From a virus, in the IMG/VR virus record IMGVR_UViG_3300050501_000129: a stretch of DNA of 64,000 nucleotides; one strand, written 5' to 3'. The translations under genes and the position numbers were made by a program. Position 1 is the stretch's first letter; every line of letters starts with the position of its first letter. Below are positions 2,276 through 63,999 of this stretch, piece by piece. The notes under the pieces are model-generated. The model saw only the letters and a program-made list of their open reading frames with translations, was not told the DNA's origin and searched no databases.

Positions 2276-3349
2276 CTACGTGCCGCTTGTTTCGCGTTCT
2301 AGCGTAACCGCGCGCGTCCACGCGTCCAGCCAGCGCCACGCGTTGCGCTCGATGGTCAGCTTGGCGGCGGCGTCTCGGCCGGCTAGCGCGCTCTCGGTGC
2401 GGCGGTCCGCGCTCTTAACCAAGCTATGAACGTACTTTCGCCACTCATGTGAATTTTTTGCGAGCAGACCGACGCCAAGACGCGCCAAGCGAGAGTACTC
2501 AGCGCGCGGTGACATGACGCACGGAACGCCGACCGCCGCGTACTCCAGCGGCTTAAGCCATGACTTAGCGGCGTTAAACTTAGAGTCCGCCAGCGGCGCG
2601 ACCCCGATACCGATCGTGTTAACCGCCAGGGGCCACGCGTTGATGTCCCTTATGACGTCCGTCGTGTCGATCGTGTAGCGCGTCGAGACGCCCAGCGCGG
2701 TATGAACGCCCGCCAGCGGGCCGGCGACACGGAACTGGCAGCCAAGCTGCAGCAGCTGCGCCATAGAGGGTCCCATAACCTGCAGGTCGGTCGGGTGTGA
2801 GTGCACCGAGCCAGCCCAACCGATGACGTTAGAGTCGGTATGTTCGATCTTCAGGTAGCGCTCGGGAACGCAGTTGCGCAGAATGTGTACCGGGGTCTTG
2901 GCGCCGTAGCGCGTCGCTAGCGCGTCGGTCGAGACCGTCACCAGTGACGCCGCGTCGCAGGCGAGCAGCGTGTTTTGCCACGAGTGTACCGCGTTGGGCC
3001 CGCTGGGATGCAGCGCGTGGAACGCTGGATTGGCCGGGTGGATGCACGTTAAGTCATCATCCATGTCGACGACGACGGCGGTACCCGCGTTGCGGATGAT
3101 CGGTATCGCCTGCACCAGGTACCGGTGCGTGACGCGTTGGAACACGATGACGTCCGCGTCCTGCGGAATCCGGACCTGGACAACGTGATCACCGTCGAGC
3201 TTGGCCTGCAGCATCTGGTCACGTTCCTGTGACGTGACGATCACGACGTCATGTCCCTGGCGCTGCAGCTCACGCGCTGGCCAGATCAGCCGGTAGTAGC
3301 CGCAGCCGGTGGTGTCGGCCGGAAAGATGTAGATCTTCACCGGATCCAC
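2276..3349 (-). CDS. glycosyltransferase (GT-B type, tentative)
   Basis: 357 aa. N-terminal IYIFPADTTGCGYY and C-terminal KSWLKPLEYAAVGVPCVMS resemble the GT1/GT4 nucleotide-sugar binding region. The start may instead be the GTG at 3340. Confidence 0.75.
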   Translation of the reverse strand: MDPVKIYIFPADTTGCGYYRLIWPARELQRQGHDVVIVTSQERDQMLQAKLDGDHVVQVRIPQDADVIVFQRVTHRYLVQAIPIIRNAGTAVVVDMDDDLTCIHPANPAFHALHPSGPNAVHSWQNTLLACDAASLVTVSTDALATRYGAKTPVHILRNCVPERYLKIEHTDSNVIGWAGSVHSHPTDLQVMGPSMAQLLQLGCQFRVAGPLAGVHTALGVSTRYTIDTTDVIRDINAWPLAVNTIGIGVAPLADSKFNAAKSWLKPLEYAAVGVPCVMSPRAEYSRLARLGVGLLAKNSHEWRKYVHSLVKSADRRTESALAGRDAAAKLTIERNAWRWLDAWTRAVTLERETSGT

Positions 3350-3438
3350 CGGACCTCATCATAGTCGACGTACCACATGCAGTAGCTGAGATAGAAGATC
3401 CATAAGCCAAGCAAGGCATCATACAGCAGTCTTACCAC
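3337..3438 (-). CDS. possible 33-aa hydrophobic micro-ORF between two glycosyltransferase genes
   Basis: The GTG overlaps the upstream TAA. The product is VVRLLYDALLGLWIFYLSYCMWYVDYDEVRWIR. Its TGA forms a GTGA overlap with an alternative GTG start of the downstream gene. It is short and unverified. Confidence 0.25.
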   Translation of the reverse strand: MVRLLYDALLGLWIFYLSYCMWYVDYDEVRWIR

Positions 3439-4034
3439 CGGTCCGGCCTTCCGCTCGTGTTGTTACCATGGTGGTGCCAGACCCAGGTCACCTCAGGAAC
3501 GTGCAGAAACGCCGCGCCAACCTCCAGCAGCCGCAGATAGAAGCCCCAGTCGTCATAGTCGCTGTCCGGTGACGTGGCCGGCGGACCGAACAGCGCCTGC
3601 TTGGCCAGGTTGGCGTACACGAGAGACGTCACCGGTATGTATGACTTCTGACGCAGCAGGTCAGCGTCGAACGGCTGACCGAAGCGTCCCCACTCCTCGC
3701 GCTGCGGAAGTATCTCGCCCCGCGCGTCGACCACGCGGCAGCCGGAATAGACCACAGTGGCACCGGACCGCAGCGCGTGATGCAGCAGGATCGTAAGGTG
3801 ATCCGGTAGAAGCTCATCATCGTCGTCGAGAAACGCGACCCACGTCGTTGATATGTGATACAGCGCCCGGTTGCGCGTCAGCGCCGAGCCGTCGTGTCGC
3901 TTGTCGAACGAGATGACGACGTTCTCCGGCTGGTGAGTCTGCGCCGCGACGCTCGTGACCGCGCGCGTCAGCTCGAAACGACGCGTCGGGATATGCGGTA
4001 TGATGACGGTTACCCTGTCCACAGCTGTCCCCAT
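3432..4034 (-). CDS. glycosyltransferase family 2 (GT-A)
   Basis: 200 aa. N-terminal VIIPHIPTR and DxD-type FLDDDDELLPDH are typical of GT2. Confidence 0.85.
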   Translation of the reverse strand: MGTAVDRVTVIIPHIPTRRFELTRAVTSVAAQTHQPENVVISFDKRHDGSALTRNRALYHISTTWVAFLDDDDELLPDHLTILLHHALRSGATVVYSGCRVVDARGEILPQREEWGRFGQPFDADLLRQKSYIPVTSLVYANLAKQALFGPPATSPDSDYDDWGFYLRLLEVGAAFLHVPEVTWVWHHHGNNTSGRPDRW

Positions 4035-4045
4035 TCAGTAACCCG

Positions 4046-4624
4046 TCACTGCCACCTGGTTGGCAGTCCGCTGGTGTGATGTCCGTGCAGCCGGTAGTGC
4101 CAGGTAATCTCACCGGTGCCGGCAAACTTCGCGCTGATGTTCATACACCGCAGGATGAACATCCAGTCCTCTCCCATCCAGTCTTGGTGAAGCGGACCAT
4201 CCGGCATGAGAAAACCGGCCTCCTTGGCGATTCGCGTTCGTACCATGACATTCATCGTCGTGTGATGTGGCTCAGTGGGATTGAACTGCCGGCCGCGATG
4301 CATCGGAAACGGGTTGTTGCCGTCGAACCACGAGTACAGGAAGTCGGCACCGGTATCATGTTGAAGGTTCAACAGCGTCTCAACGTGGTGCGGATACCAG
4401 AGGTCGTCGTCATCGAGAAAGGCAACCCACTCGGTCTGTACGGCGTCCAACGCCCGCTGACGGGTCCGCGCCGCACCCTCGTGATTACAGTCCAGCGCGA
4501 CGGAGATGCCACCGTGCAGCGTCACCGTCTGCGCCTGCACCGAGCTGACGGCCTCTGACAGGAGGTTGCCGACGCGCGGCGGAATGGCCGCGATCGCTGC
4601 CGTGACGTCTACCGTCTTCTTCAC
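4046..4624 (-). CDS. glycosyltransferase family 2 (GT-A)
   Basis: 192 aa, a paralogue-like copy of 3432..4034 (FLDDDDLWYPHH; similar C-terminal HHTSGLPTRW). Confidence 0.85.
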   Translation of the reverse strand: MKKTVDVTAAIAAIPPRVGNLLSEAVSSVQAQTVTLHGGISVALDCNHEGAARTRQRALDAVQTEWVAFLDDDDLWYPHHVETLLNLQHDTGADFLYSWFDGNNPFPMHRGRQFNPTEPHHTTMNVMVRTRIAKEAGFLMPDGPLHQDWMGEDWMFILRCMNISAKFAGTGEITWHYRLHGHHTSGLPTRWQ

Positions 4625-5139
4625 TTAGCCAGAGCTCCCACGGCACACTGCCACTTGGGGCGCGCGTCAGCGACCGGCCAAAGCAGCTTGACTTCATCCA
4701 TATTCATCGGCACGACGCTCGACCAGCCCGCGTCTTCCAGCAGCTCAACGAGTCGCGTCTCGGTACACTCCCACAGGTGAACGTCGCCAGCCCACCGGCC
4801 AGCGCCGAAGCGCAGCGAATCTAGCGTCGCGCCGTACTCGTCCGACCCGGTCTCACCGAGCAGCTCGCGGCCGCGGTCGACGTCCGGTCCAACGATCATG
4901 ATCGCGCCGTTAATGACCATACAGTCGCGCAGCCGTGACAGCAGCGTCCACGCGTCTGCACGCGTCAGGTGCTCTAGGACGTGTCCCGCGTAGACGCACT
5001 CGACGCTACCCGTCGGCCACGGCAGCTCACCGGTCAGGTCGACACGCTGGTCAGCGCGGTGCGGCATTTCAGGTAGGTCGACGTTGAGCCAGCCGTTTGC
5101 GTAGCGGTCGCCGCAGCCTAGGTTAAGTTGCACGCTCAT
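4621..5139 (-). CDS. class I SAM-dependent methyltransferase
   Basis: 172 aa. LNLGCGDRYANGWLNVD glycine-rich SAM motif plus VYAGHVLEHL. Forms a 4-nt overlap with the downstream gene. Confidence 0.8.
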   Translation of the reverse strand: MSVQLNLGCGDRYANGWLNVDLPEMPHRADQRVDLTGELPWPTGSVECVYAGHVLEHLTRADAWTLLSRLRDCMVINGAIMIVGPDVDRGRELLGETGSDEYGATLDSLRFGAGRWAGDVHLWECTETRLVELLEDAGWSSVVPMNMDEVKLLWPVADARPKWQCAVGALAK

Positions 5140-5144
5140 ACCTC

Positions 5145-6374
5145 CTACAGCAGGGTCGGCGCGGGAATCGGTAGGATCCAGTGGCCGCCGTCGATCGTGA
5201 ACTGCTGCTCATTACGCATGATTGAACCGGCGTAGTTCCACGCGAGTAGCAGGTAGGTGTCAGTAATCTCATGATCGACGACGGTCTGGTTGTAGATCTT
5301 TATTCCCGTTCCCGGAATGTAGCGCTCCTGCTTCGCTTCAGTCGTATCGGTGACGTAGCGTAGCAGCTCACCGTCGATGCCACAGAAGTTAAGCAGCGTC
5401 GTCGCCTTGGCCGGCGCGCCGTATCCAACAACTGCGTGACCGGCGTCACGTTCGTCAAGCAGCAGCTGCAGAAGCCGTTGTTTGAGCCGCTCAGCACGCC
5501 CCTGGAGCCCGAGGTAGACGTTCGTGTCCGTTAACCAGGCTTCAGAGCTGACGACGCTGGAGACTCGTCTAGAGACCTGACTCTGCCGGCGCAGCTTGAC
5601 ACGCAACGAGCCACCCTGTCGGTCAGTAAGCTGCGCGTCAACGACGTACAAGCCGTGGTTACGCGCCGCAGAGCGCAGACTGGTCAGCGAGAAGAAGTTG
5701 CGATGCTCGTGGTAGACCAGGTCGAACGCGTTATTGAGGATCAAGTCAGGTAGGTACTGCACCTCGACATACACGGTACCCTTGAACGCCAGCAACTCAT
5801 CGATACCGGCGAAGACGTCAGAGACGCTCTCGACGTGCGCCAAGACATGGTTCGCGATGATGACGTCTGCGGGCCCGTGCTGCGCGTGAATCTCGTGTGC
5901 CAGGTTGCGGCCGAATGGCTTGACGACCGTCTCGACGCCGCGCTGCGCGGCGACCTCAGCCGGTCCGTCAGCTGGATCAACTCCAATGACACGCCAGCCC
6001 GCGCGCAAGAGCAAGTGTGAGAAATCACCGTCGTTTGACCCGATCTCAACTACGAGCGGCTTGCGTGCCAGTCCGCTGTCGCTTAGATTCCACTCGTTAA
6101 GAACGTCGTTGGCGTAGCGCGCATGATAGAGCGACAGCGGCTTGGATGCACTTGAGTAGAACGAGTAGCCCGAGCCGAATAGGTCCGGCACCACCTCGAG
6201 CAGCTGAACCAGGTGGCAGCCGGCGCAGACCGCCAGCTGCAGCGGGTAGTGCGTCACCGTCTCGTTGTCCTTGGTGTAGTTGTCCGCGATCGGCGACAGT
6301 CCCAAGTCAAGAACCAGGCGCAAGTCGTCGTAGTTGCACGCGCTGCAGCGCGTCCTCTTCATCGTTGTCCCCAC
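5145..6374 (-). CDS. C-methyltransferase-family enzyme (NDP-hexose C-methyltransferase-like)
   Basis: 409 aa. N-terminal Zn-type CSAC...CAGCHLVQL, a central SAM domain (VVEIGSNDGDF), and the LVYHEHRNFFSLTSL motif typical of the TylCIII-like architecture. Confidence 0.75.
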   Translation of the reverse strand: MGTTMKRTRCSACNYDDLRLVLDLGLSPIADNYTKDNETVTHYPLQLAVCAGCHLVQLLEVVPDLFGSGYSFYSSASKPLSLYHARYANDVLNEWNLSDSGLARKPLVVEIGSNDGDFSHLLLRAGWRVIGVDPADGPAEVAAQRGVETVVKPFGRNLAHEIHAQHGPADVIIANHVLAHVESVSDVFAGIDELLAFKGTVYVEVQYLPDLILNNAFDLVYHEHRNFFSLTSLRSAARNHGLYVVDAQLTDRQGGSLRVKLRRQSQVSRRVSSVVSSEAWLTDTNVYLGLQGRAERLKQRLLQLLLDERDAGHAVVGYGAPAKATTLLNFCGIDGELLRYVTDTTEAKQERYIPGTGIKIYNQTVVDHEITDTYLLLAWNYAGSIMRNEQQFTIDGGHWILPIPAPTLL

Positions 6375-6997
6375 TTCGAGTTGAAGATCTCCTCGGCACG
6401 CAGCCGCATCTCGTGAGATTTCTCGGTCTTATAGCCGAAGGTCGTATGATGATAAGTGTCGATGTCAGCGACGTAGACCCGCTTGCCGGCGTGCCTTGCC
6501 TCGAGACAGACGTCATCGTAGCCGTGAAATTCATAGCGTTCATCGAAGCGCAGCTCCTGAATCGCCCACGGCGAGAACACCATAAATGATCCCTCAACGA
6601 TGTCGACGTCTCCCGCAGACCGGTCACCAAAGTGAAGAAGTGCGCTGTCGGTCGACTGGTGACCGATCGGGTCGACGTCCCACCAGTTAAGTGACGGTCC
6701 GCCCCCGGCGACACCGATGATTGCGATTTGCGGATCTGCCGCAAAGACGGAGATAATCATCGGTTCTGTCAACGGATCAGTCATCTCGAGGTCATCGTGA
6801 AGTAGAACGACGGCATCCAAGTCATAGACTCGAAAGCCGTCTAGAATCGCGTTATACGCCACCGAGATCGAAATCTGGTTAAACGCCGTTAGGACCGGTT
6901 GATTCTTTGGGATCCGCGGCTCGACGTACCGGTGAAACTTGTCCCACGTGCCGACGCAGCAGCCGTAGCCGATCTTCACCATGGCCGCCGTCCCCAC
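6359..6997 (-). CDS. GT-A-like glycosyltransferase (tentative)
   Basis: 212 aa with LLHDDLEM (DxD-like) and a GT-A-like length. Translationally overlapped on both sides within the cassette. The family assignment is weak. Confidence 0.5.
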   Translation of the reverse strand: MGTAAMVKIGYGCCVGTWDKFHRYVEPRIPKNQPVLTAFNQISISVAYNAILDGFRVYDLDAVVLLHDDLEMTDPLTEPMIISVFAADPQIAIIGVAGGGPSLNWWDVDPIGHQSTDSALLHFGDRSAGDVDIVEGSFMVFSPWAIQELRFDERYEFHGYDDVCLEARHAGKRVYVADIDTYHHTTFGYKTEKSHEMRLRAEEIFNSKWGQR

Positions 6998-7683
6998 TTA
7001 AGCGCGAACGTCTCACCGTCGCGGCCGGCCTGCTCAGCGAGTGCGCCGCACGTCGTCGAGTTGGCTAGCGTGTTGAGCGGCGCCTCGCCCGGTAGCATCA
7101 GAACGCCGCCGGCTTGGATCGCTTGCCACTCAAAGTCAGTGTCGCCCCACCACCAGTGCATCTTCTCGTCGGCGCGCAGACCAAGCTCGCCGCGAACAAC
7201 GAACGCCCACGGACACATACGAGTCATGATGTTGCCGTCGATCTGCGTCTTTAGGTGTGGCATGCCGGCAGTCGTTTGTGTGTACGTGCACGCGATCGCG
7301 GGAACGTTCAGATGCTTTAGCGACTCCGTCGTCCGAAACAGCGCTCCAGCAACGTTGTCATACCAATTGGCGGGCAGTGATGTGTCGTCATTGAGGACCG
7401 CGACATCCCACAGCTTTTCACCAAACGCCTTGACGGTCATCTCGATGACGTTAAACGCCGTGTTCCACATCTTATAGAGGTGAGGCGGCTGCTCGTCATC
7501 ACGGTGAACGATCGTCTTGACGTCCGGAACCTGCATACGCAGCCACAGCGAAGACAGAGGTAGGTCACTGGCATTGTCGATGACGTAGACGAAGTCGACC
7601 TGGCCAGCTAGCTGGCGCAGCAGCGAGATCAGCTGTTCGTGACGGTTACGTGTTGGGATAATCGCGTATCGGGGGACTCTCAC
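6976..7683 (-). CDS. glycosyltransferase family 2 (GT-A)
   Basis: 235 aa. YAIIPTRNRHEQLISLLRQL and VYVIDNASD are typical of the GT2 N-terminus. Confidence 0.8.
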   Translation of the reverse strand: MRVPRYAIIPTRNRHEQLISLLRQLAGQVDFVYVIDNASDLPLSSLWLRMQVPDVKTIVHRDDEQPPHLYKMWNTAFNVIEMTVKAFGEKLWDVAVLNDDTSLPANWYDNVAGALFRTTESLKHLNVPAIACTYTQTTAGMPHLKTQIDGNIMTRMCPWAFVVRGELGLRADEKMHWWWGDTDFEWQAIQAGGVLMLPGEAPLNTLANSTTCGALAEQAGRDGETFALKWGRRPW

Positions 7684-35258: not shown

Positions 35259-35286
35259 CTTCTCACTCCTCACTTTAGCTTACGCG

Positions 35287-35360
35287 TAGACCGCGCGGGG
35301 CTCGAACCCGCGACCTCCGGATTGAGAGTCCGGTGTGCTAACCAGCTGCACCAGCGGTCC
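35287..35360 (-). tRNA. tRNA-Glu (anticodon CUC)
   Basis: Hand-folded 74-nt cloverleaf: acceptor GGACCGC/GCGGTCT (G1-U72), D stem GTGC/GCAC, anticodon stem CCGGA/TCCGG with loop CTCTCAA, T arm GCGGG-TTCGAGC-CCCGC. CCA is not encoded. Confidence 0.8.
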
Positions 35361-35443
35361 CTAGTTGAGGCGGTGTACGCAGCTTGTTTCCACGTACAGG
35401 CCTTGTGCTCCTTCGGGTTTTTCTCCCTCTCCGACACTCAACG

Positions 35444-35516
35444 TGCATGATGCAGGATTCGAACCCGCCCATTCTGCTTGGAAGGCAGACATGCTAGCCA
35501 CTAACATCAATCATGC
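35444..35516 (-). tRNA. tRNA-Gly (anticodon UCC)
   Basis: Hand-folded 73-nt cloverleaf: acceptor GCATGAT/ATCATGC, anticodon stem TCTGC/GCAGA with loop CTTCCAA, T arm GCGGG-TTCGAAT-CCTGC. Confidence 0.85.
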
Positions 35517-49633: not shown

Positions 49634-49709
49634 CGCGGAGTGGTGCAGCTCGGTCGTGCACGCCAGTCTCATAAGCTGGAGGTCGCCGGTTCGAATCCGG
49701 CCTCCGCGT
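49634..49709 (+). tRNA. tRNA-Met type (anticodon CAU; elongator or Ile-lysidine type)
   Basis: Hand-folded 76-nt cloverleaf: acceptor CGCGGAG/CTCCGCG, D stem GTGC/GCAC, anticodon stem CCAGT/GCTGG with loop CTCATAA, T arm GCCGG-TTCGAAT-CCGGC. C1-G72 is paired, so it is not initiator-like. Confidence 0.85.
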
Positions 49710-50031
49710 CGGGAAGATCCCCGGCCGTCGGCGGCCGTCGGGAATAGCAGGCTCGAGCGGAACAGACCGGTCCGAGACCATCCGGCGTCTTCCCGCGAGC
49801 CACAACTTAAGACTTAGGCCTACGTAGCCCCACGTGTCGGCTCTCTGGACGGGTTGAAGAGGGACGCATTCGTCTGGACCCAGCAGCGGCGTGACGGTGG
49901 CTTCAGTCCCGCGGCAGCTACGGTTAACGGGATGCGATGGAAGCGGCGTGCGCCGGCGCAAGGATATGGCGCTTCTCGGGTAAGGATTCCACCGGCGCAC
50001 AGAAGATGACCAGAGAAGAGAGGAGTGACAG

Positions 50032-51844: not shown

Positions 51845-52425
51845 TTTTTGAAGAAACGCGTATGCTACAATAAAAATTATGGATTTACATGCGCAAGTAG
51901 ATGATCTTTTTCCAGGCGATAAGAGAACAATGATAAGAATTCTTGTCCACGCTCTTATCGATTTAGAACAAATTACATCACTGGACTGTATGTGGAGTTT
52001 GTGTGTACTTCCCGGTATACCTCTTTCTCCTGCAGGTACGCGTAAAGCATGTGCAACATTAGATCACATTCAAGCACGTACAAACGGTGGATCGGACCAC
52101 TGGCGCAACGTTCAACTACTTCATCATACATGTAACATGCGTAAAAGTCATGATTTCACTGAAGAACATAGACAAAAAATTAGTGATGCGGTGCGTAAAC
52201 GCTGGCAAGATCCTGAGTATCGAGCCACTGTTGCGCCTAAAGTTGCAGCAAAACTTCGTGACCCAGAAGTAAGAAAACGAAAAAGTGAAGCAATGAAACG
52301 CCACTGGGCTGATCCTGAACGTAAAGCACAGCACTCAGCTAAGCTTGCACGCGGTGAAGACTGGCGAAGGGCAAGAAGTTAACTATGTTAATAATATTGG
52401 AAGGTCCTGATGGTTCTGGCAAGTC
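51845..52425 (+). mobile_element. AT-rich island carrying a free-standing HNH homing endonuclease
   Basis: There is an abrupt drop in GC by eye from the stop at 51844 to about 52425. The island contains the HNH ORF and extends into the first ~13 codons of the next gene. Confidence 0.65.
51879..52382 (+). CDS. HNH homing endonuclease with NUMOD-like C-terminal repeats
   Basis: 167 aa. HNH core LDHIQARTNGGSDHWRNVQLLHHTCNMRK. Repeated basic helices (EEHRQKISDAVRKRWQDPEYR, RKRKSEAMKRHWADPERK). Confidence 0.85.
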   Translation: MDLHAQVDDLFPGDKRTMIRILVHALIDLEQITSLDCMWSLCVLPGIPLSPAGTRKACATLDHIQARTNGGSDHWRNVQLLHHTCNMRKSHDFTEEHRQKISDAVRKRWQDPEYRATVAPKVAAKLRDPEVRKRKSEAMKRHWADPERKAQHSAKLARGEDWRRARS

Positions 52426-53479
52426 GACGCTGGCGCAGGAGATCGCCGCCGAGCTGGGCCGGACGACCAGCGACAGGGTCGAGATCTGGCACCGCGGCCG
52501 GCCGACCGGTCACCCGCTAGACGAGTACCTGCGGCCGCTGTACGGCTACCGACCCGGCACCGGTTACCACCTGATCCTGGACCGCTGGCACTGGGGCGAG
52601 GTCGTCTATCCGAAGATTCTCAACCGGCCGACGAGCCAGAACAGCGCTGTCTTCTGGGCGATTGAGGCGTATCTGCTGCGACTCGGTGCGTTGGTCATTA
52701 ACTGTGACAATAACTTCACGTTCCAGTATCACAACATCTACCGTGAACGCGAGCTTGACGGTACTTCCGACGCCTGGCAGATCACTCACTTGAACCGGAT
52801 TCGTGACGAGTTTTCTCGTATGATCTATCGCTCGGCGCTACCGTCGTTGACGTATTCCTACGGCCACGACCCCCAACCCAATATCATCGACTTAGCGCGC
52901 CGCTACGAGACTCAGGCACGTGAGCTCAACGACTTCGTGACGTACTCTGGTCCGGTCAAACCTCACATGCTGCTGCTCGGTGACGTTCGCAACCTGCAGC
53001 CGATCGATCCACTGAACTCACCGGCATTCGTTCCCACCAAGCAGTCGTCCGGTCACTTCCTACTCAAGTCGTTGACGTCTCTAACGTCCCGCACATGGGT
53101 GCACGGCGTCGGACTGGCCAACGTCAACGACGTCGACAACGTGTATAAACTATGGCAGACTCTCGGGCAGCCGTCAGTCGTCGCGCTTGGTAGGAAAGCC
53201 CACGCCCGTACTCTCTACGTGCTAAACCAGGAATATGGTGTCGTTCCCCATCCCCAGTACGTCCGCCGGTTTCACCACGGTAAAAGTGAGCAGTACGGCT
53301 GGCTCATCTGTCAGGCCAGCCAGACGAGAGAGGACTACAGCAAGTGGCCACAGTCATCCACGCCCGTGACGGGCGAACCGCCTACGTCGATGTCATCACC
53401 AAGCTCCGGCTCTTTGGCGTCAGCCGACCCAGTCGCAACGGCCCGACCCGTGACCTCGGACACACCACTATCATCCTAG
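52385..53479 (+). CDS. thymidylate/dNMP kinase-like P-loop domain fused to a UDG-superfamily-like domain
   Basis: 364 aa. N-terminus has ILEGPDGSGKST and LDRWHWGEVVY (Tmk-like P-loop and DR motif). The C-terminal ~170 aa have the UDG family-4-like layout (LLLGDVRN...PAFVP..SSGHFLL; VGLANVN; VPHPQYVRR) with altered catalytic residues. Confidence 0.7.
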   Translation: MLIILEGPDGSGKSTLAQEIAAELGRTTSDRVEIWHRGRPTGHPLDEYLRPLYGYRPGTGYHLILDRWHWGEVVYPKILNRPTSQNSAVFWAIEAYLLRLGALVINCDNNFTFQYHNIYRERELDGTSDAWQITHLNRIRDEFSRMIYRSALPSLTYSYGHDPQPNIIDLARRYETQARELNDFVTYSGPVKPHMLLLGDVRNLQPIDPLNSPAFVPTKQSSGHFLLKSLTSLTSRTWVHGVGLANVNDVDNVYKLWQTLGQPSVVALGRKAHARTLYVLNQEYGVVPHPQYVRRFHHGKSEQYGWLICQASQTREDYSKWPQSSTPVTGEPPTSMSSPSSGSLASADPVATARPVTSDTPLSS

Positions 53480-54204
53480 ACGAGCCGTGCGACGCGCTAC
53501 CTATCGACGTCGGTCGCGGGCTCAGCGAGCGGATCGCCGCGCTAGAGGCGATCCAGCTAGTTGGCGCCTTCTCTGACCCCGACTGGCTCGTCGAGAGGGC
53601 TCCCCAGCTGTCTCCCTACAGGGAGCCGTCCGGTGCGTTCTGGGGCGCGTACGGACGCCGGATCGGCTGGCAGATCCGCGACGCCGTCGCCAAGCTGCGT
53701 GCCGACCCGTGGACGCGCCAGGCCGTCGCCACTCTCTGGGATCCCATGTACGACAACTACCCGGAGAAGCGTGACTACCCGTGCACCGTCGCGCTTGGTT
53801 TCACCCAGCAGCCGACGTTTACCAGTGACCAGCTCAACATGCACGTCACGATGCGCTCAAACGACGCGTGGCTTGGACTACCGTATGACATGTTTCAGTT
53901 CACCCAGCTCTTCCAGACCGTCTGCCGCTGCCTGGACGTCCGACCCGGCACGTACACTCACACCGCGTGGTCGCTGCACCTGTATGACCGAGACGTCGAC
54001 CGCACGCACGACGTCGCGCTGGCCGGCGACACCGGCTACCGGTTTGACCCGACCGGTTTCGGTGAACCGAACATGTCGTTCACTGACGTCAGCCAGCGAG
54101 CGCACGTGATCGCGCTGACCCCGGACAAGATCGACTGGGAGCTTACTCCGAGTGAGAGGTGGTACCGTGACGCTATCCATGGCGATCCGACCAAGTTGGC
54201 ATGA
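53344..54204 (+). CDS. thymidylate synthase (ThyA)-family pyrimidine C5 (hydroxy)methylase, Asp at the specificity position
   Basis: 286 aa. RQAVATLWDP, YPC (catalytic Cys), MRSNDAWLGLPYDMFQF and HLY align to ThyA RRIIVSAWNV, APCH, QRSCDVFLGLPFNIASY and THLY. The gene overlaps the upstream gene by 136 nt. Confidence 0.85.
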   Translation: MATVIHARDGRTAYVDVITKLRLFGVSRPSRNGPTRDLGHTTIILDEPCDALPIDVGRGLSERIAALEAIQLVGAFSDPDWLVERAPQLSPYREPSGAFWGAYGRRIGWQIRDAVAKLRADPWTRQAVATLWDPMYDNYPEKRDYPCTVALGFTQQPTFTSDQLNMHVTMRSNDAWLGLPYDMFQFTQLFQTVCRCLDVRPGTYTHTAWSLHLYDRDVDRTHDVALAGDTGYRFDPTGFGEPNMSFTDVSQRAHVIALTPDKIDWELTPSERWYRDAIHGDPTKLA

Positions 54205-54664
54205 CGTGCGACTCGCGATGGCCACCGAGCTGGCCAAGCGCAGCCTGTGCAGCCGTGACCAGGTCGGCGCGGTGGTTGTCGACAAGTACAACAAGATCAT
54301 CGGTGAGGGCTACAACGGCCCGCCGCGTGGCTTCTGGCACGGTGGAGAGCCGTGCACCAAGTGGTGCCAGCGTACGATGAACTTTAAGCTCGCGGGTGAC
54401 GATGGACTTCATACAACATATGATGACTGTCCGTCACTGCACGCCGAAGCCAACGCCCTGCTGCAGGCCGACCGCTCGTTCTGCCTCGGCGGTACCATCT
54501 TCGTGACGAGCCACGTCTGCATGGGTTGTGCCAAGCTCATCGCCAACTCCGGCCTGGGAATGCTAGTCGTCCGATCCGTCGTCAAGGATCACCGACGCTC
54601 GGAAGAGGTCTACAACTTCCTGCGCGACTGCAAGATCGAGCTGGGTATCTGGGAGGACAGGTGA
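54167..54664 (+). CDS. dCMP deaminase
   Basis: Zinc motifs CPSLHAEANAL and HVCMGCAKLI (the HAE...PCxxC class). The start is ambiguous (GTG 54152, GTG 54167 or ATG 54179). Confidence 0.85.
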   Translation: MTLSMAIRPSWHDVRLAMATELAKRSLCSRDQVGAVVVDKYNKIIGEGYNGPPRGFWHGGEPCTKWCQRTMNFKLAGDDGLHTTYDDCPSLHAEANALLQADRSFCLGGTIFVTSHVCMGCAKLIANSGLGMLVVRSVVKDHRRSEEVYNFLRDCKIELGIWEDR

Positions 54665-56466
54665 CCGGTACCGGGGTACTTGACCGCGTCAAGCTGCACT
54701 ACATCGAGTCGTTCGACGACGTTCAGGCGTACATCGACTGGTTCTCCAACAAGGCTTATGATGACCCGATCGCCGTCGACACCGAGTCGACCGGCTTCTA
54801 CTGGCACCGTGATGACTACGTCCGGATGGTCCAGGTCGGTGACGAAGTCGACGGCTGGGCAATGCGCTGGGACCGATTCTCGGGCCTGTTCGAGGCGACC
54901 GTCGCGGTGCACGAGGGTCCGATCGACCTGATGAACGCCAAGTTCGACTACGCGTTCCTGCGCAAGGCCGGCGTCAAGCTTAGGCAGCCGCTGATCCGCG
55001 ACGTCGGTGTCATGTCGTACGTTCTCGAGCCGCACATGTCACGCGCGCTCAAGAACCAGGCCAAGCGGCACGTCGACCCGCGCGCCGGCACGCTCCAGTG
55101 GCAGCTCGACGAGGCGATCGGTGGTCGCAGCGAGTGGACGTGGGCGACGATCCCGCACGACTTTCCGCTGTACTGGCAGTACGCCGCGATGGACCCGGTG
55201 CTGACCGCTCTGATCCGTGAGCACCACTGGCCGCTCGTTCAGGAGCGCGCGCCGCGCGCCTATGAGATCGAGAACGAGTTCCAGTGGGTCGCGCTTAAGG
55301 CCGAGACGTACGGCGTCTGCATCGACGTCGACTACGCGGATCGGCACTACTCCAAGTTCACCGCGTACTGCGAGGACGTCGAGCGATGGTGTGAGAGTGA
55401 GTACGGCGTCAAGCCGGGCAGCAACCAGGCCATCGTGCGCAAGCTGGTCGAGCTTGGTTTCAGTGAAGATCACTACTTCTCTAAGTCAACCGCCAAGGGC
55501 GCGGTCGCGCTCGACTCTAGCGTCCTAGAAGTCATCGATCACCCGCTCGCGCAGGCGGTTCTCCAGCGGCGGCAGCTGCAGAAGATCGCATCAACGTACC
55601 TGCGGTTCTACGTCGGTCACGTCGACTCGAACTCGCTGATTCACCCGTCGATCAACACCGTCGGCGCGCTGACCGGCCGGATGACCGTCTCGGAGCCCAA
55701 CCTGCAGAACCTGCCGGTCCGCGGCACCAACCCAGCGCACAGGGTCGTCCGCAACTGCGTCGTCGCGCGGCCCGGTCACACGCTTATCATGGTCGACTTC
55801 GACCAGGTCGAGATGCGCGGACTGGCGATCGACTCCGGTGACGCCGGCTTGATCGCGGCGTTTCAGGCCGACGAGGACTTCTTCGTCTCGATCGCGCGCC
55901 AGGTCTACGACGACCCGACGCTGGTCAAGGCGGACCCGCGCCGGCAGCCGGTTAAGAACGGCATGTACGCCCGGATCTACGGCGCCGGGCTGGTCAAACA
56001 GGCCGCCACGGCCGGCGTGTCCGTCGAGCAGATGCGCTATGTCAACACGTCGCTGAACCTCAAGTTCCCGGGCATCGAGTCGTACGCGCGCGGCATCATC
56101 GACCAGGCGATCCGCGACGGTCGCAACGAGGGCGGACTGGCGTTCACGACCTGCTCGCTGACCGGCCAGCGTCACTACGCCGAGCGCGGCAAGGAGTACG
56201 CGCTGGTCAACTACAAGATCCAGGGATGGGCCGCCAAGCTGTTGAAGCTCAAGGCGCTCGAGTTAGACGCGGCCGGTCTCGGTGACTACATCATCGCGTT
56301 CATCCATGACGAAATCATCTTTGACATGCCGAATGACCTGGTCCGTGACGCGGTGCACACCATTCAAAAGATCATGAACGACACGACGATGTTCCCCGTC
56401 GCGATCACGGCCAGCGTCTCGACGGGGCAGCGGTGGGGAGAGAAGAAAGAGTGGAGTGAAGATTAA
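54661..56466 (+). CDS. polA: DNA polymerase I (family A) with 3'-5' exonuclease domain
   Basis: The GTG at 54661 makes a GTGA overlap with the deaminase stop. Exo I IAVDTESTGF; motif A MVDFDQVEMRGLA; motif B RRQPVKNGMYARIYG; motif C FIHDEIIFD. Confidence 0.9.
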   Translation: MTGTGVLDRVKLHYIESFDDVQAYIDWFSNKAYDDPIAVDTESTGFYWHRDDYVRMVQVGDEVDGWAMRWDRFSGLFEATVAVHEGPIDLMNAKFDYAFLRKAGVKLRQPLIRDVGVMSYVLEPHMSRALKNQAKRHVDPRAGTLQWQLDEAIGGRSEWTWATIPHDFPLYWQYAAMDPVLTALIREHHWPLVQERAPRAYEIENEFQWVALKAETYGVCIDVDYADRHYSKFTAYCEDVERWCESEYGVKPGSNQAIVRKLVELGFSEDHYFSKSTAKGAVALDSSVLEVIDHPLAQAVLQRRQLQKIASTYLRFYVGHVDSNSLIHPSINTVGALTGRMTVSEPNLQNLPVRGTNPAHRVVRNCVVARPGHTLIMVDFDQVEMRGLAIDSGDAGLIAAFQADEDFFVSIARQVYDDPTLVKADPRRQPVKNGMYARIYGAGLVKQAATAGVSVEQMRYVNTSLNLKFPGIESYARGIIDQAIRDGRNEGGLAFTTCSLTGQRHYAERGKEYALVNYKIQGWAAKLLKLKALELDAAGLGDYIIAFIHDEIIFDMPNDLVRDAVHTIQKIMNDTTMFPVAITASVSTGQRWGEKKEWSED

Positions 56467-61837: not shown

Positions 61838-61907
61838 ATATATGATCATATGGTAGAGTGGTGGATGTTAGATCCGCCGCTCTACCGTCTTAGAGAGGAG
61901 AGAGAAG

Positions 61908-63173
61908 GTGAAGAGACGAATCGGCTACGCCAAGCTCGGCCGCTCGATGCCGCTGCAGCTCGGTGACTGTGGCTCTAACGGCGGTGACGTTGAGATGATT
62001 CCGACGCTCCAGCTGCTCGCCGAGCGTCACCCAGACGTCGAGTTCGTTATCATCGGTCGCAACTCCGGTGAGGAGCCGGCGCGCGTCGGCCTACCTGCCA
62101 ACATCACCAATCCGTGGACCGGTTGGTGGCCCAAGATCCGCGCTGAGATGAACGCAGCGAAGCTGAATCATCCGGCTCTAAGCGTCGACGAGCACCTACG
62201 ACTTGCCGAGATCTTTGACCGGTACACACGCGACGCCTTTGTGCTGCTTGACGGCGTTGTTATGTGGCTTGGCCAGCACGGCACAACACACACTCCGCTG
62301 CCGTCAATTAAAGATCGCAGCGTCTTGACCAAACCATATGACTCATTGTCACTCTACGGCGGCTACCTGCTACGTGGCGTCAACGCGTGGCGCGACGTCG
62401 ATCCGCATAATCGTGAGGAGGTGCTGCTCAACCCAGACCCGCGCAACGTGCCAAAGTACCGGGACGGCCGGTATCCGTGGCGGCACGCCGTCTTGAGCCA
62501 GCACGACCAGGTAAACGCGATTAAGCACGAGGAGGGTGACCGGGTCGTTTCGTCGACGGTTCTCAGCGTCTACTCGCGCCTGGAGATCTCGGGTCTGCTC
62601 CCTAGTACGCCGTTCACCAACCTCATTAAGTTCAATGACGACCACAACCGACCGCACGACTTCGGCATCGTGTTCAATGAGACACGGCGTGACGTCGCGC
62701 TCGAGAAGTCACGACGTTACATCCTAGAGAAGTGGGTGTTCCCGCTGTCTCCCGGCTTTATCTACGGACAATGGAGCGACGCAACTCGGCGGCAGCTCGG
62801 CATCCGGATTGAACCGATCGACGTGCTGAACTACTTCAGTACGATCCAGACCACGCGCTGCACGTTGACGACCCCGTCATCTGGCTCCGGCTGGGCGACT
62901 GCCAAACCGTGGGAGTGCTTCGCCGCCGGCGTGGTCTGCTTCTTTCACCCAGCGTACGACGACCAGAACCACATACTCAACGACGCACCCTACGCGCTTG
63001 CGTCGTGGCTGCGCGTCCGTCACCCGATTGACCTACGTGACCGGATCCGCTACATGCGAGACAACCCAGAGTATTGGCAGGAAATCGTTCGGCTTCAACG
63101 CAATCACTACCTAAAAGCTATCGACGAGCTCAGCTACATAACAAAGATCGAACAGAGACTGGGACTGGACTAA
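61908..63173 (+). CDS. GT-B-like glycosyltransferase (tentative)
   Basis: 421 aa. The C-terminal TTPSSGSGWATAKPWECFAAGVVCFFHP resembles the GT4 PSxxEgfG..lEAmAxGxPV region. Confidence 0.55.
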   Translation: MKRRIGYAKLGRSMPLQLGDCGSNGGDVEMIPTLQLLAERHPDVEFVIIGRNSGEEPARVGLPANITNPWTGWWPKIRAEMNAAKLNHPALSVDEHLRLAEIFDRYTRDAFVLLDGVVMWLGQHGTTHTPLPSIKDRSVLTKPYDSLSLYGGYLLRGVNAWRDVDPHNREEVLLNPDPRNVPKYRDGRYPWRHAVLSQHDQVNAIKHEEGDRVVSSTVLSVYSRLEISGLLPSTPFTNLIKFNDDHNRPHDFGIVFNETRRDVALEKSRRYILEKWVFPLSPGFIYGQWSDATRRQLGIRIEPIDVLNYFSTIQTTRCTLTTPSSGSGWATAKPWECFAAGVVCFFHPAYDDQNHILNDAPYALASWLRVRHPIDLRDRIRYMRDNPEYWQEIVRLQRNHYLKAIDELSYITKIEQRLGLD

Positions 63174-63859
63174 TGGACGCGATAATCCTCGCCGGCGGGC
63201 GCGGCACCCGCGTCATGGAGCTGGCTCCCGAGTTCCACAAGCCGCTGCTGCCAGTCAACGGCGTCCCGATGGTGACGCTGGCCGTCGACCTGGCGCTGCG
63301 CGCCGGCGTCACGTGTCCCGTCGTCGTGGCCGCGCCCGCCAACACCGAGGCGATCTGCGGCGCACTGGACGGCCGACCCGCGTTCGTCGTCATCCAGCGC
63401 CAGCCGCTCGGCGCCGGCCACGCGCTGCTGCTCGGGCTGCAGGCCAGTCCGCGCCCGCTCGTCGATTGCGATCGGGTGCTCGTGCTACTCAGTGACAACG
63501 TCTCGACGGACACCGACGTCACCGCGGTGATGCAACACCCAACCGCGATCGGGATCCAGTACATCGAGCGGGTCAACGCGTTTCGCTTCGCGCGGCTGAA
63601 CGACGACGGCCGCTGGTGCGAAAAGGAACGCCTCAAGCTTGACGGTCCGCCCGTAGCGTGTTGGGTTGGACCGTTCATCGGCTGGCGCAACCGAATGGTG
63701 CGGGTGCTTGCCGAGGCGGTCGCCGCGCGCAAGCCGAATGAAGAGGTTTACATCGGACCCCACCTCGGTAACTTCATGTACAGCGAGACGAAGTGTCCCC
63801 TCGTGCCGGTCGACTCGCTCGACCTGGGCGTGACGGACGAGTACCGGAGGTTAACATGA
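63173..63859 (+). CDS. sugar-phosphate nucleotidyltransferase
   Basis: 228 aa from ATG 63173 (TAATG overlap with the upstream stop). AIILAGGRGTRV...KPLLPV is the GxGTR(x)n K signature of NDP-sugar pyrophosphorylases. Confidence 0.8.
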   Translation: MDAIILAGGRGTRVMELAPEFHKPLLPVNGVPMVTLAVDLALRAGVTCPVVVAAPANTEAICGALDGRPAFVVIQRQPLGAGHALLLGLQASPRPLVDCDRVLVLLSDNVSTDTDVTAVMQHPTAIGIQYIERVNAFRFARLNDDGRWCEKERLKLDGPPVACWVGPFIGWRNRMVRVLAEAVAARKPNEEVYIGPHLGNFMYSETKCPLVPVDSLDLGVTDEYRRLT

Positions 63860-63999
63860 ATGAAAACGAGACTGAAGAGATGAACGACGGTAAAATGAAC
63901 TGGCCGGCCGCGGTCGTCAACGTCGTACTTATCCTGGCCGTCGTCGCGATCGTATTCATTATCTGCGGCAACGACATCTTGAAGGGCTGGCTGACGTGA
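63856..63999 (+). CDS. small single-TM protein (47 aa)
   Basis: ATGA overlap with the upstream stop. The product begins MNENETEEMNDGKMNWPAAVVNVVLILAVVAIVFIICG. Confidence 0.45.
   Translation: MNENETEEMNDGKMNWPAAVVNVVLILAVVAIVFIICGNDILKGWLT

Follow-up and report, generated by a model that had tools for sequence, protein, structure and literature searches.

The present analysis suggests that two overlapping genes of an uncultured phage, encoding a glycosyltransferase (GT) and a sugar-1-phosphate nucleotidyltransferase (NTase), probably serve the final, sugar-transferring part of a cytosine hypermodification pathway of the T-even type, in which 5-hydroxymethyl-dC (hm-dC) would be made and a sugar then moved from an NDP-sugar onto the DNA. 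The first-pass annotation had proposed the same gene logic. It is now well supported by computation, although not proven, because the fold of the GT resembles that of T4 DNA β-glucosyltransferase (BGT), a thymidylate synthase (TS) homologue encoded upstream carries the signature of T4 gp42, the pair belongs to a chain of overlapping genes, and the linkage is kept among relatives. The presence of kinase, deaminase and dCTPase-like genes is in line with this reading.

The stretch of DNA analysed here (the window, 64,000 nt) is part of a contig of 68,421 bp, of which a 21-kb locus, denoted L004, was also examined. The features discussed below are collected in Table 1. The host is probably an actinobacterium, i.e., a high-GC Gram-positive bacterium. 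A megablast search with 12 kb of sequence gave no match among 50,697 phage records. No relative of the GT turned up either when 185,579 cellular genomes were scanned by pattern, so that prophages give no clue to the host.

Table 1. Positions of the features in the window and the basis of their assignment.
Feature	Position	Strand	Basis or remark
Leftward glycosylation cassette: GT-B-like gene, three GT2, NDP-hexose C-methyltransferase, methyltransferase	2276..7683	-	Pfam
P-loop nucleotide kinase (residues 1-180, YorR/TMPK-like) with conserved C-terminal domain; predicted 5hm-dCMP kinase	52385..53479	+	
TS homologue; predicted dCMP hydroxymethylase (5hm-dCMP synthase)	53344..54204	+	Pfam Thymidylat_synt, E 8e-17
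dCMP deaminase	54167..54664	+	Pfam dCMP_cyt_deam_1, E 2.5e-14; L004 gene call
Family A DNA polymerase; would incorporate the modified dNTP	54661..56466	+	PF00476 on L004 gene call
17-bp stem-loop	61850..61887	+	In the 70-nt gap ahead of the GT gene
BGT-like GT-B glycosyltransferase; predicted DNA (5-hydroxymethylcytosine) glycosyltransferase	61908..63173	+	421 aa; AF2, Foldseek, profiles
Sugar-1-phosphate nucleotidyltransferase, RmlA/GlmU type; predicted maker of the UDP- or dTDP-sugar donor	63173..63859	+	228 aa
47-aa predicted membrane protein	63856..63999	+	ATGA with NTase (63856-63859), GTGA with dUTPase_2 (63996-63999)
dUTPase_2 gene, dCTPase-like	starts at 63996, runs off the window	+	PF08761

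The glycosyltransferase and its nucleotidyltransferase partner

Both genes of the pair are confirmed as real. The GT reading frame opens with a GTG codon preceded by a purine-rich, Shine-Dalgarno-like stretch, closes with a TAA stop at 63171-63173, and has 762 metagenomic homologues. The AF2 model of the protein (pLDDT 85.4, pTM 0.86) displays two Rossmann-like domains in a GT-B arrangement, which bears out the earlier GT-B-like reading. In a Foldseek search of this model against the PDB, ranks 1-6 are all occupied by T4 BGT, with E values of 3e-9 to 1e-7 and target-normalised TM scores of 0.57-0.68, whereas generic GT-B enzymes appear in the same list only from E 1e-5, three to four orders of magnitude behind. 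A BFVD match annotated as DNA beta-glucosyltransferase reaches a TMq of 0.75.

At the sequence level, the top match of the GT family profile among PDB sequences is 1bgt (hmmsearch, E 0.1), and hhalign aligns the family with BGT residues 264-331 (E 1.4e-4). The alignment is confined to the C-terminal 68-75 residues (blastp E 4e-4), and the profile matches span the UDP-binding helix of BGT. The invariant K333 and E336 of the GT stand opposite the UDP-binding residues Arg269 and Glu272 of BGT, with Lys in place of Arg. The catalytic base of BGT is Asp100 of the N-terminal domain. When a full-length hhalign alignment was forced, the N-terminal domain came out unreliable and Asp100 was not placed; as this acceptor domain of the GT is not alignable, no equivalent of the catalytic Asp is assigned. 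An invariant loop that follows a strand, N175-x-D177-x-R179-N180, is at most a candidate for the site.

The resemblance to BGT is thus one of fold level only. The GT gave no match to the Pfam family of T4 BGT, its Pfam score lies under the cut-off, searches of PHROGs and NCBIfam returned nothing, and in an all-against-all profile search of 379 clusters BGT was absent among the best 150 hits. The family is seen solely in phage or metagenome contigs, a single distant match, in Pseudoalteromonas phage XG4, being returned by tblastn. The median isoelectric point of the family is 6.8, i.e., not basic, versus 9.05 for BGT; as a proxy for DNA binding, this quantity proved uninformative.

For the NTase, a mechanical list of reading frames gives a longer version starting with TTG at 63074. 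All homologues, however, begin with MDA(I/V)ILAGG, which places the true start at 63173. The nucleotidyltransferase signature noted previously is present as LAGGRGTR, and the Pfam families NTP_transf_3 and NTP_transferase are matched past their cut-offs (40.9 bits against the gathering cut-off of 21.2 for PF00483, and 46.5 against 27). Across 11 homologues, G9, R13, K23, D108, and D217 do not vary; K23 is the conserved Lys, D108 and D217 are the metal-binding Asp pair, and the catalytic domain is full-length. The family profile aligns from end to end with 3hl3, a short RmlA (E 2.6e-23), and the best solved relatives are glucose-1-phosphate thymidylyltransferases. The NCBIfam equivalogs all score far under their cut-offs and assign no sugar or nucleotide specificity.

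The ATG of the NTase gene (63173-63175) shares the final A of the GT stop codon, so that the TAATG overlap (63171-63175) previously taken to couple the two genes is real. Four genes are in fact chained by stop/start overlaps (TAATG, ATGA, and GTGA, in this order), namely those of the GT, the NTase, a 47-aa protein, and a dUTPase_2 protein. In L004 the last two are called at 11949-12092 and 12089-12763. The dUTPase_2 protein is similar to the T4 gp56 dCTPase (44% over 48 aa, E 1e-7).

Ahead of the pair, where Cas4/Sak4/DUF669 recombination genes had been described, PDDEXK_1 (E 7.5e-18) and AAA_24 (E 2.2e-8) are matched in Pfam, and the DUF669 match is weak (E 0.084). The statement that the pair lies far from the virion genes does not hold, since the distance arises from the cut of the window rather than from the genome; the contig of 68,421 bp has the start of the leftward cassette ~6.7 kb downstream of the NTase gene.

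This cassette is a possible alternative user of the NTase product, as the first-pass annotation had already noted. The NTase, and possibly the GT, would then serve virion or cell-envelope glycosylation, an early NDP-sugar feeding a cassette that decorates capsid or tail proteins, a modification that occurs in some mycobacteriophages. The short distance on the full contig, the dTDP- or NDP-hexose substrate needed by the NDP-hexose C-methyltransferase of the cassette, and the thymidylyltransferase relatives of the NTase all speak for such a role. The cassette is also kept in 24 related loci, but its co-occurrence cannot separate the two explanations because cassette and pair are both conserved in the clade. 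We nevertheless consider this role rather unlikely: the pair is located on the opposite strand and forms an overlapping chain with a dCTPase-like gene, the nearest fold of the GT is that of a DNA glucosyltransferase, and in the related loci L064 and L053 and in phage XG4 the NTase and GT genes lie directly amid genes for TS, kinase, and deaminase, the fetched flanks showing no cassette of this kind.

Predicted synthesis of the modified nucleotide

The top match of the TS homologue among PDB sequences is the CMP 5-hydroxymethylase MilA. Its diagnostic residues were read from an alignment with E. coli ThyA, T4 gp42, and RB69 gp48. According to established structure-function rules (PMC13326640), Cys146 is catalytic, N177D specifies cytosine, L143D/E indicates a product other than the methylated one, and retention of D169 marks a hydroxymethylase, while D169N is the mark of a 5-hydroxy-dCMP synthase of the RB69 gp48 type. 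The window protein retains C146 and D169 and carries L143D, H147T, and N177D, a signature identical to that of T4 gp42 and unlike that of RB69 gp48. The alignment therefore agrees with the cytosine hydroxymethylase that had been predicted for this gene. In overall similarity, on the other hand, the protein is nearer to the RB69 enzyme (E 1e-12) than to gp42 (E 3e-3), and the hydroxymethyl assignment consequently depends on a few diagnostic residues.

It could be argued that the TS, kinase, and deaminase are an ordinary dTTP supply and that the GT and NTase serve an acceptor other than DNA, for example a small molecule or a polymer of the host wall; public records do label such genes thymidylate synthase and thymidylate kinase, and the sub-threshold Pfam score of the GT would fit. 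By the rules given above, N177D together with L143D is incompatible with a dUMP-methylating thymidylate synthase, and the GT family is not found in the cellular genomes scanned, while its linkage to these genes is conserved. We consider this explanation very improbable.

A different base might also be glycosylated, the TS homologue making 5-hydroxy-dCMP, as in RB69, DLP3, and HY126, or another C5 derivative to which the GT attaches an ether-linked sugar. The overall similarity to RB69 gp48 favours such a scheme, as do the parts of a UDP-arabinose pathway found in relatives (fused NTase-APH kinase, HAD, and SIS isomerase) and the match of the kinase N-domain to YorR (3kb2), the structure that ranks first for DLP3 gp78 as well (PMC13326640, Table 1). 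D169N is, however, absent from the window protein and from all 35 TS homologues linked to the GT family, each of which (35 of 35) has the gp42 signature (L143D, D169, N177D), and neither the window nor the fetched 21-kb locus contains a sugar kinase, HAD, or SIS gene. Glycosylation of another base is accordingly judged quite unlikely.

The remaining enzymes are consistent with the T-even-type pathway. The kinase matches phrog_761, annotated thymidylate kinase (E 4e-14); its AF2 model (pLDDT 89) retrieves 2axp and 3kb2 in Foldseek (E 1e-5), and TMP kinases as well. For its C-terminal domain, a search of PDB sequences found no match and the fold search gave matches to the kinase domain only. The polymerase matches actinophage DNA polymerase I in tblastn.

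In the pathway that we infer, the dUTPase_2 protein would first remove dCTP, and the TS homologue would convert dCMP into 5-hydroxymethyl-dCMP. The TMPK-like kinase and the host NDP kinase would then yield 5hm-dCTP, which the phage PolA would build into DNA. The NTase would activate a host sugar-1-phosphate to a UDP- or dTDP-sugar, and the BGT-like GT would finally attach the sugar to hmC in duplex DNA through its hydroxymethyl group. So modified, the genome may be protected against restriction and CRISPR nucleases. The analysis directly supports the folds, the families, the active-site signatures, the coupling of the genes, and their conserved linkage; hmC in DNA as the acceptor, the sugar, its nucleotide carrier, and the protective role are inferred from these.

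Linkage and donor genes among relatives

The association of these genes is conserved among relatives. A TS homologue is encoded in 32 of the 35 upstream-complete loci, with a kinase gene adjoining it in 23 of 35 and a dCMP deaminase present in 31 of 35, and dUTPase_2 or MazG occurs in 36 of 40 loci. The linkage of GT, NTase, and TS outlives genome rearrangement: the order is kinase-TS-APH kinase-HAD-NTase-GT-dCMP deaminase-PolA in L064 and C5MT-TS-kinase-orf-GT-NTase/kinase in L053, and the linkage recurs in the unrelated Pseudoalteromonas phage XG4 as TS-HAD-NTase/kinase-GT-GT-C5MT.

The module is also accompanied, in 39 of 40 loci, by a C5 DNA methyltransferase that is apparently intact, with its PPC catalytic motif. 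If cytosine were fully replaced, this enzyme would have no substrate, which counts against the T-even reading. The same enzyme, found in XG4 too, would suit a post-replicative route of the MT/5mYOX/GT type, in which the methyltransferase makes 5mC, an oxidase converts it into 5hmC, and the GT glycosylates the product. Since no dioxygenase of the Tet/JBP type was detected among the called genes of L004 (21 kb) or the other early reading frames scanned, and a dCMP-specific TS homologue is linked in most loci, we regard this route as highly unlikely.

Next to the constant GT, the genes for the sugar donor vary. The NTase may be the sole donor gene, it may be joined by a separate APH-type kinase, it may be fused to a kinase and accompanied by HAD and SIS genes, or an RGP-like protein and an epimerase may stand in its place. 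The last type is that of most relatives, and the NTase and RGP types are mutually exclusive. The fused NTase-kinase, HAD phosphatase, and arabinose-5-phosphate isomerase are encoded in L053, L056, L058, L059, L025, and L064; the window and the 21-kb locus yielded none of these genes. Such variation makes it conceivable, although we put this forward tentatively, that the phage-only BGT-like GTs place non-glucose sugars on 5-hydroxymethylcytosine and that the clade swaps its donor module beside a conserved GT (here the NTase alone, in most relatives an RGP-like mutase and an epimerase, and in some a pathway for arabinose similar to that of the Afh genes), giving several chemically new DNA bases in actinobacterial phages. 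These might possibly include arabinosyl-5hmC, a base once wrongly assigned to RB69.

Comparison with known systems

In T4, the hmC pathway consists of the gp56 dCTPase, the gp42 dCMP hydroxymethylase, the gp1 dNMP kinase, the cd dCMP deaminase, and BGT (CAZy GT63). The same set of activities is predicted here, with a TS signature equal to that of gp42, a dUTPase_2 protein resembling gp56, and a dCMP deaminase. The GT is nevertheless 70 residues longer than BGT, to which it is ~23% identical over 70 C-terminal residues, and the kinase, unlike gp1, is TMPK/YorR-like with an extra domain. T4 relies on UDP-glucose of the host, whereas the window phage encodes its own NTase; it further differs in its linked C5 DNA methyltransferase, its family A polymerase, and its probable actinobacterial host.

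The arabinosyl-5-hydroxycytosine systems of RB69, DLP3, and HY126 (Afh genes; PMC13326640) share with the window phage the clustering of a TS homologue, a TMPK-like kinase, and a GT, as well as phage-encoded NDP-sugar synthesis, for which its relatives have the fused NTase-APH kinase, HAD, and SIS isomerase. The window phage departs from them in a TS without D169N, a GT that is BGT-like rather than GT4-like, and an NTase that stands alone. A metavirome survey has described GT-B genes beside ThyS, dCMP deaminase, methyltransferases, epimerases, and APH phosphotransferases (Pyle et al., bioRxiv 10.1101/2023.12.21.572611), and the present module has the gene pattern of these ThyS-associated clusters; the GTs tested in that work were MT/5mYOX-dependent.

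Actinomycetia phage DSL-LC01 and Gordonia phages Forza and Mareelih possess a similar early module, composed of a TMPK-like kinase, a TS with the hydroxymethylase signature, dCMP deaminase, PolI, Cas4, and a RecA-like gene. At the equivalent position DSL-LC01 carries a GT followed by UDP-galactopyranose mutase. This GT was considered as a relative of the window GT and rejected, there being no detectable similarity; the GTs of all three phages belong to another family.

If the T-even reading is true, cytosine replacement and glycosylation in the style of T4 would reach beyond the T-even phages and be widespread in a large clade of uncultured phages of ~60-100 kb, probably infecting soil actinobacteria. 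Their DNA would be resistant to standard restriction and CRISPR tools, with a possible bias in the sequencing of such phages. The swappable donor modules would then represent a natural experiment on the diversification of DNA glycans under pressure from host nucleases, and the GT family with its NTase partners would provide new candidates for the enzymatic labelling of hmC with sugars other than glucose.

The stem-loop ahead of the GT gene has no U-tail and was missed by the terminator scan. Its RNA fold has an energy of -30 kcal/mol (z -4.99), and 0 of 200 shuffled sequences were equally stable; it may possibly function as a terminator, an attenuator, or an RNA-stability element.

The glycosyltransferase and its coupled nucleotidyltransferase

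Searches of PHROG and NCBIfam with the 421-aa glycosyltransferase (GT) returned no match, and its sole Pfam match, Glyco_trans_1_2, was below threshold. The family is tight, with 762 metagenomic homologues and, in a set of 1.84 billion representatives, 379 clusters at 50% identity; all of these are unnamed, and 185,579 cellular genomes yielded no relative. The AlphaFold2 model computed from 41 family members (pLDDT 85.4, pTM 0.86) has two Rossmann-like domains. In a Foldseek comparison with the PDB, the first six places all go to phage T4 DNA beta-glucosyltransferase (BGT; E 3e-9 to 1e-7, target-normalised TM 0.57-0.68), generic GT-B enzymes appearing first at E 1e-5, and match no. 2 among predicted viral structures is annotated "DNA beta-glucosyltransferase" (TMq 0.75). 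The confident model, with BGT as its top structural match, argues for the GT-B-like identity proposed in the first-pass annotation.

BGT is also the best match of the family profile among PDB sequences, a weak one (E 0.1), and hhalign aligns 68 C-terminal columns of the family with BGT (E 1.4e-4), placing the invariant K333 and E336 opposite R269 and E272 of the UDP-binding helix. Because the N-terminal acceptor domain has no reliable alignment, the catalytic Asp100 of BGT has no established equivalent in the GT. The isoelectric point of the family gives no sign of a strongly basic DNA binder.

The second protein of the pair is above the cut-off for both Pfam nucleotidyltransferase (NTase) families, has the Gly-rich loop, keeps K23, D108, and D217 invariant across 11 homologues, and in a profile comparison aligns over its whole length with the short glucose-1-phosphate thymidylyltransferase 3hl3 (E 2.6e-23). 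None of the NCBIfam equivalogs came near its cut-off, and hence no sugar or nucleotide specificity is assigned. The "IQRQPLG" motif, with a conserved Gln, is one that we take to resemble RmlA and GlmU, and from this Gln we infer that the nucleotide may be a pyrimidine. In a mechanical ORF list the gene has a TTG start further upstream; since all homologues begin with MDA(I/V)ILAGG, the start is placed at the downstream ATG.

The translational coupling of the pair noted earlier is present, the last A of the GT stop codon being the first base of the NTase ATG (TAATG, 63171-63175). Such overlaps extend to two further genes, as ATGA (63856-63859) between the NTase and a 47-aa ORF, and as GTGA (63996-63999) between the latter and dUTPase_2. 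The recombination genes reported upstream were also recovered, namely a PD-(D/E)XK/Cas4-like nuclease, an AAA_24/Sak4-like ATPase, and DUF669 (a weak match). The claim that the pair lies far from the virion genes, however, does not hold: the window is cut from a 68,421-bp contig (L004), on which the leftward glycosyltransferase cassette begins ~6.7 kb after the NTase, and the apparent distance is therefore an artefact.

Coordinates of the features discussed (window positions unless a locus is given)
Feature	Position	Strand	Remarks
Leftward cassette	2276-7683	-	one GT-B-like, three GT2, NDP-hexose C-methyltransferase (Methyltransf_14/13/23), small methyltransferase
tRNA genes (3: Glu-CTC, Gly-TCC, Met-CAT)	35286-35516; 49634-49710	-; +	
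HNH endonuclease gene	51879-52382		directly upstream of kinase/TS module
P-loop kinase	52385-53479	+	directly upstream of TS; N-domain like YorR and thymidylate kinases
TS homologue	53344-54204		predicted dCMP hydroxymethylase
Stem-loop, 17 bp	61850-61887		in 70-nt gap between DUF669-like gene and GT; -30 kcal/mol, z -5; without U-tail
GT gene	61908-63173	+	GTG start, 421 aa, TAA stop
NTase gene	63173-63859	+	ATG start, 228 aa
47-aa membrane ORF	63856-63999	+	hydrophobic segment; between NTase and dUTPase_2, 4-nt overlap with each
dUTPase_2 gene		+	GTG start, 224 aa; continues past window end
C5 cytosine DNA methyltransferase (C5MT)	L004:12800-14290		just beyond window, after dUTPase_2 gene; intact PPC motif
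XG4 island	L069:1-6600		
C5MT of XG4	L069:5363-6580		linked to GT
Loci of Gordonia phage Mareelih	L070:8186-9819; L071:351-1415		

The predicted hydroxymethylase and the proposed pathway

Among solved structures, the best match of the thymidylate synthase (TS) homologue is the CMP 5-hydroxymethylase MilA. In E. coli ThyA numbering, N177D indicates a cytosine substrate, L143D/E a product other than methyl, and D169N the flavin-dependent 5-hydroxy-dCMP synthases of RB69 and DLP3 (PMC13326640). Alignment with E. coli ThyA, T4 gp42, and RB69 gp48 gave C146, L143D, H147T, D169, and N177D, the same residues as in gp42 and in all 35 TS homologues linked to the GT family, whereas gp48 carries D169N. 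The modified base could also be other than 5-hydroxymethylcytosine (5hmC). Over the whole sequence, gp48 (E 1e-12) is a closer match than gp42 (E 3e-3), and the hydroxymethyl assignment therefore rests on the diagnostic residues, which agree with the cytosine hydroxymethylase predicted earlier.

YorR (3kb2), which the N-terminal domain of the upstream kinase resembles, is also the top match reported for DLP3 gp78 (PMC13326640). The C-terminal domain of the kinase (residues ~185-330) is well folded (pLDDT >90), has the invariant motifs LLLGDVR, PAFVP..SGH, and VPHPQY.RRF, and found no match in Pfam or PDB sequences; some relatives have a shortened domain or none (200 aa in L053). Its motifs may resemble those of the uracil-DNA-glycosylase superfamily. 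The kinase and TS ORFs share 136 nt, where the kinase tail is of low complexity and poorly predicted (pLDDT about 50-60). A dCMP deaminase and then a family A polymerase follow the TS, and dUTPase_2 matches the T4 gp56 dCTPase (44% over 48 aa, E 1e-7).

The likeliest mechanism, to which we give a modest preference, is of the T-even type: 5hm-dC would take the place of dC at the nucleotide level, the coupled NTase would supply an NDP-sugar, and the BGT-like GT would use it as donor to glycosylate the DNA.

Gene order in related loci

Genes were mapped by blastp in 61 IMG/VR loci encoding the GT family. Typically the genes run kinase - TS - dCMP deaminase - PolA ... AAA_24 - DUF669 - GT - [sugar genes] - dUTPase_2 or MazG - C5MT. 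Of the 35 loci whose upstream flank is complete, 32 have the TS homologue; where the downstream flank suffices, dUTPase_2 or MazG occurs in 36 of 40 loci and C5MT in 39 of 40. The latter is puzzling, since a conserved C5MT is hard to square with full replacement of cytosine by hmC, and replacement may therefore be partial. The ORFs scanned yielded no TET/JBP-type dioxygenase.

The sugar genes beside the GT differ. The window and its closest relatives have just the NTase; some loci have an APH-type kinase with NTase, these two with HAD, or a fused NTase-APH kinase (478-502 aa), sometimes accompanied by a SIS isomerase; most loci encode an RGP-like protein (PF03214; 25.1 bits, cut-off 23.8), in some cases together with an NAD-dependent epimerase. 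The NTase and RGP types were never found together at one mapped locus. The SIS isomerase matches the RB69 gp55 arabinose-5-phosphate isomerase (E 2e-8), and the components of the fused-kinase/SIS loci are those of the UDP-arabinose pathway in arabinosyl-5-hydroxycytosine phages. Actinomycetia phage DSL-LC01 has, at the same position, an unrelated GT followed by UDP-galactopyranose mutase.

The strongest evidence is provided by genomes in which the order is shuffled, yet the genes are still together. The relative L064 has a contiguous kinase - TS - APH kinase - HAD - NTase - GT - dCMP deaminase - PolA, and L053, where no replication gene lies nearer than 10 kb, has C5MT - TS - kinase - orf - GT - NTase/kinase. 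In the cultured marine Pseudoalteromonas phage vB_Psh_XG4 (PP712099, unannotated) the order is TS (with a gp42-like motif) - HAD-like - fused NTase/APH kinase - GT homologue - second GT-like - C5MT, an island that offers a ready experimental proxy.

Leftward cassette, host, and known systems

The NTase product could alternatively be used by the leftward cassette, which includes an NDP-hexose C-methyltransferase and is likewise a conserved feature of the clade, its GT-B and GT2 genes being kept in 24 related loci; this cassette is probably a virion glycosylation system.

A WhiB gene, a GC content of about 61%, and matches of the polymerase to those of actinophages point to an actinobacterium as the probable host. 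Systems of this kind are already known from T4, from RB69/DLP3/HY126, and from a metavirome survey describing GT-B genes beside ThyS, dCMP deaminase, methyltransferases, epimerases, and APH kinases (bioRxiv 10.1101/2023.12.21.572611). What appears to be new is the phage-only BGT-like GT family, the combination of this family with a TS homologue of the hydroxymethylase type and an NTase encoded by the phage, and the setting in phages probably infecting actinobacteria; the literature searched held no report of hmC in actinophages.

In cultured Gordonia phages belonging to Forzavirus, such as Mareelih, a TS homologue with the hydroxymethylase signature QDYPCT...MRSND...SSD adjoins a TMPK-like kinase. 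These phages also carry a GT related to that of DSL-LC01 (E 2e-57), and their DNA may also be modified.
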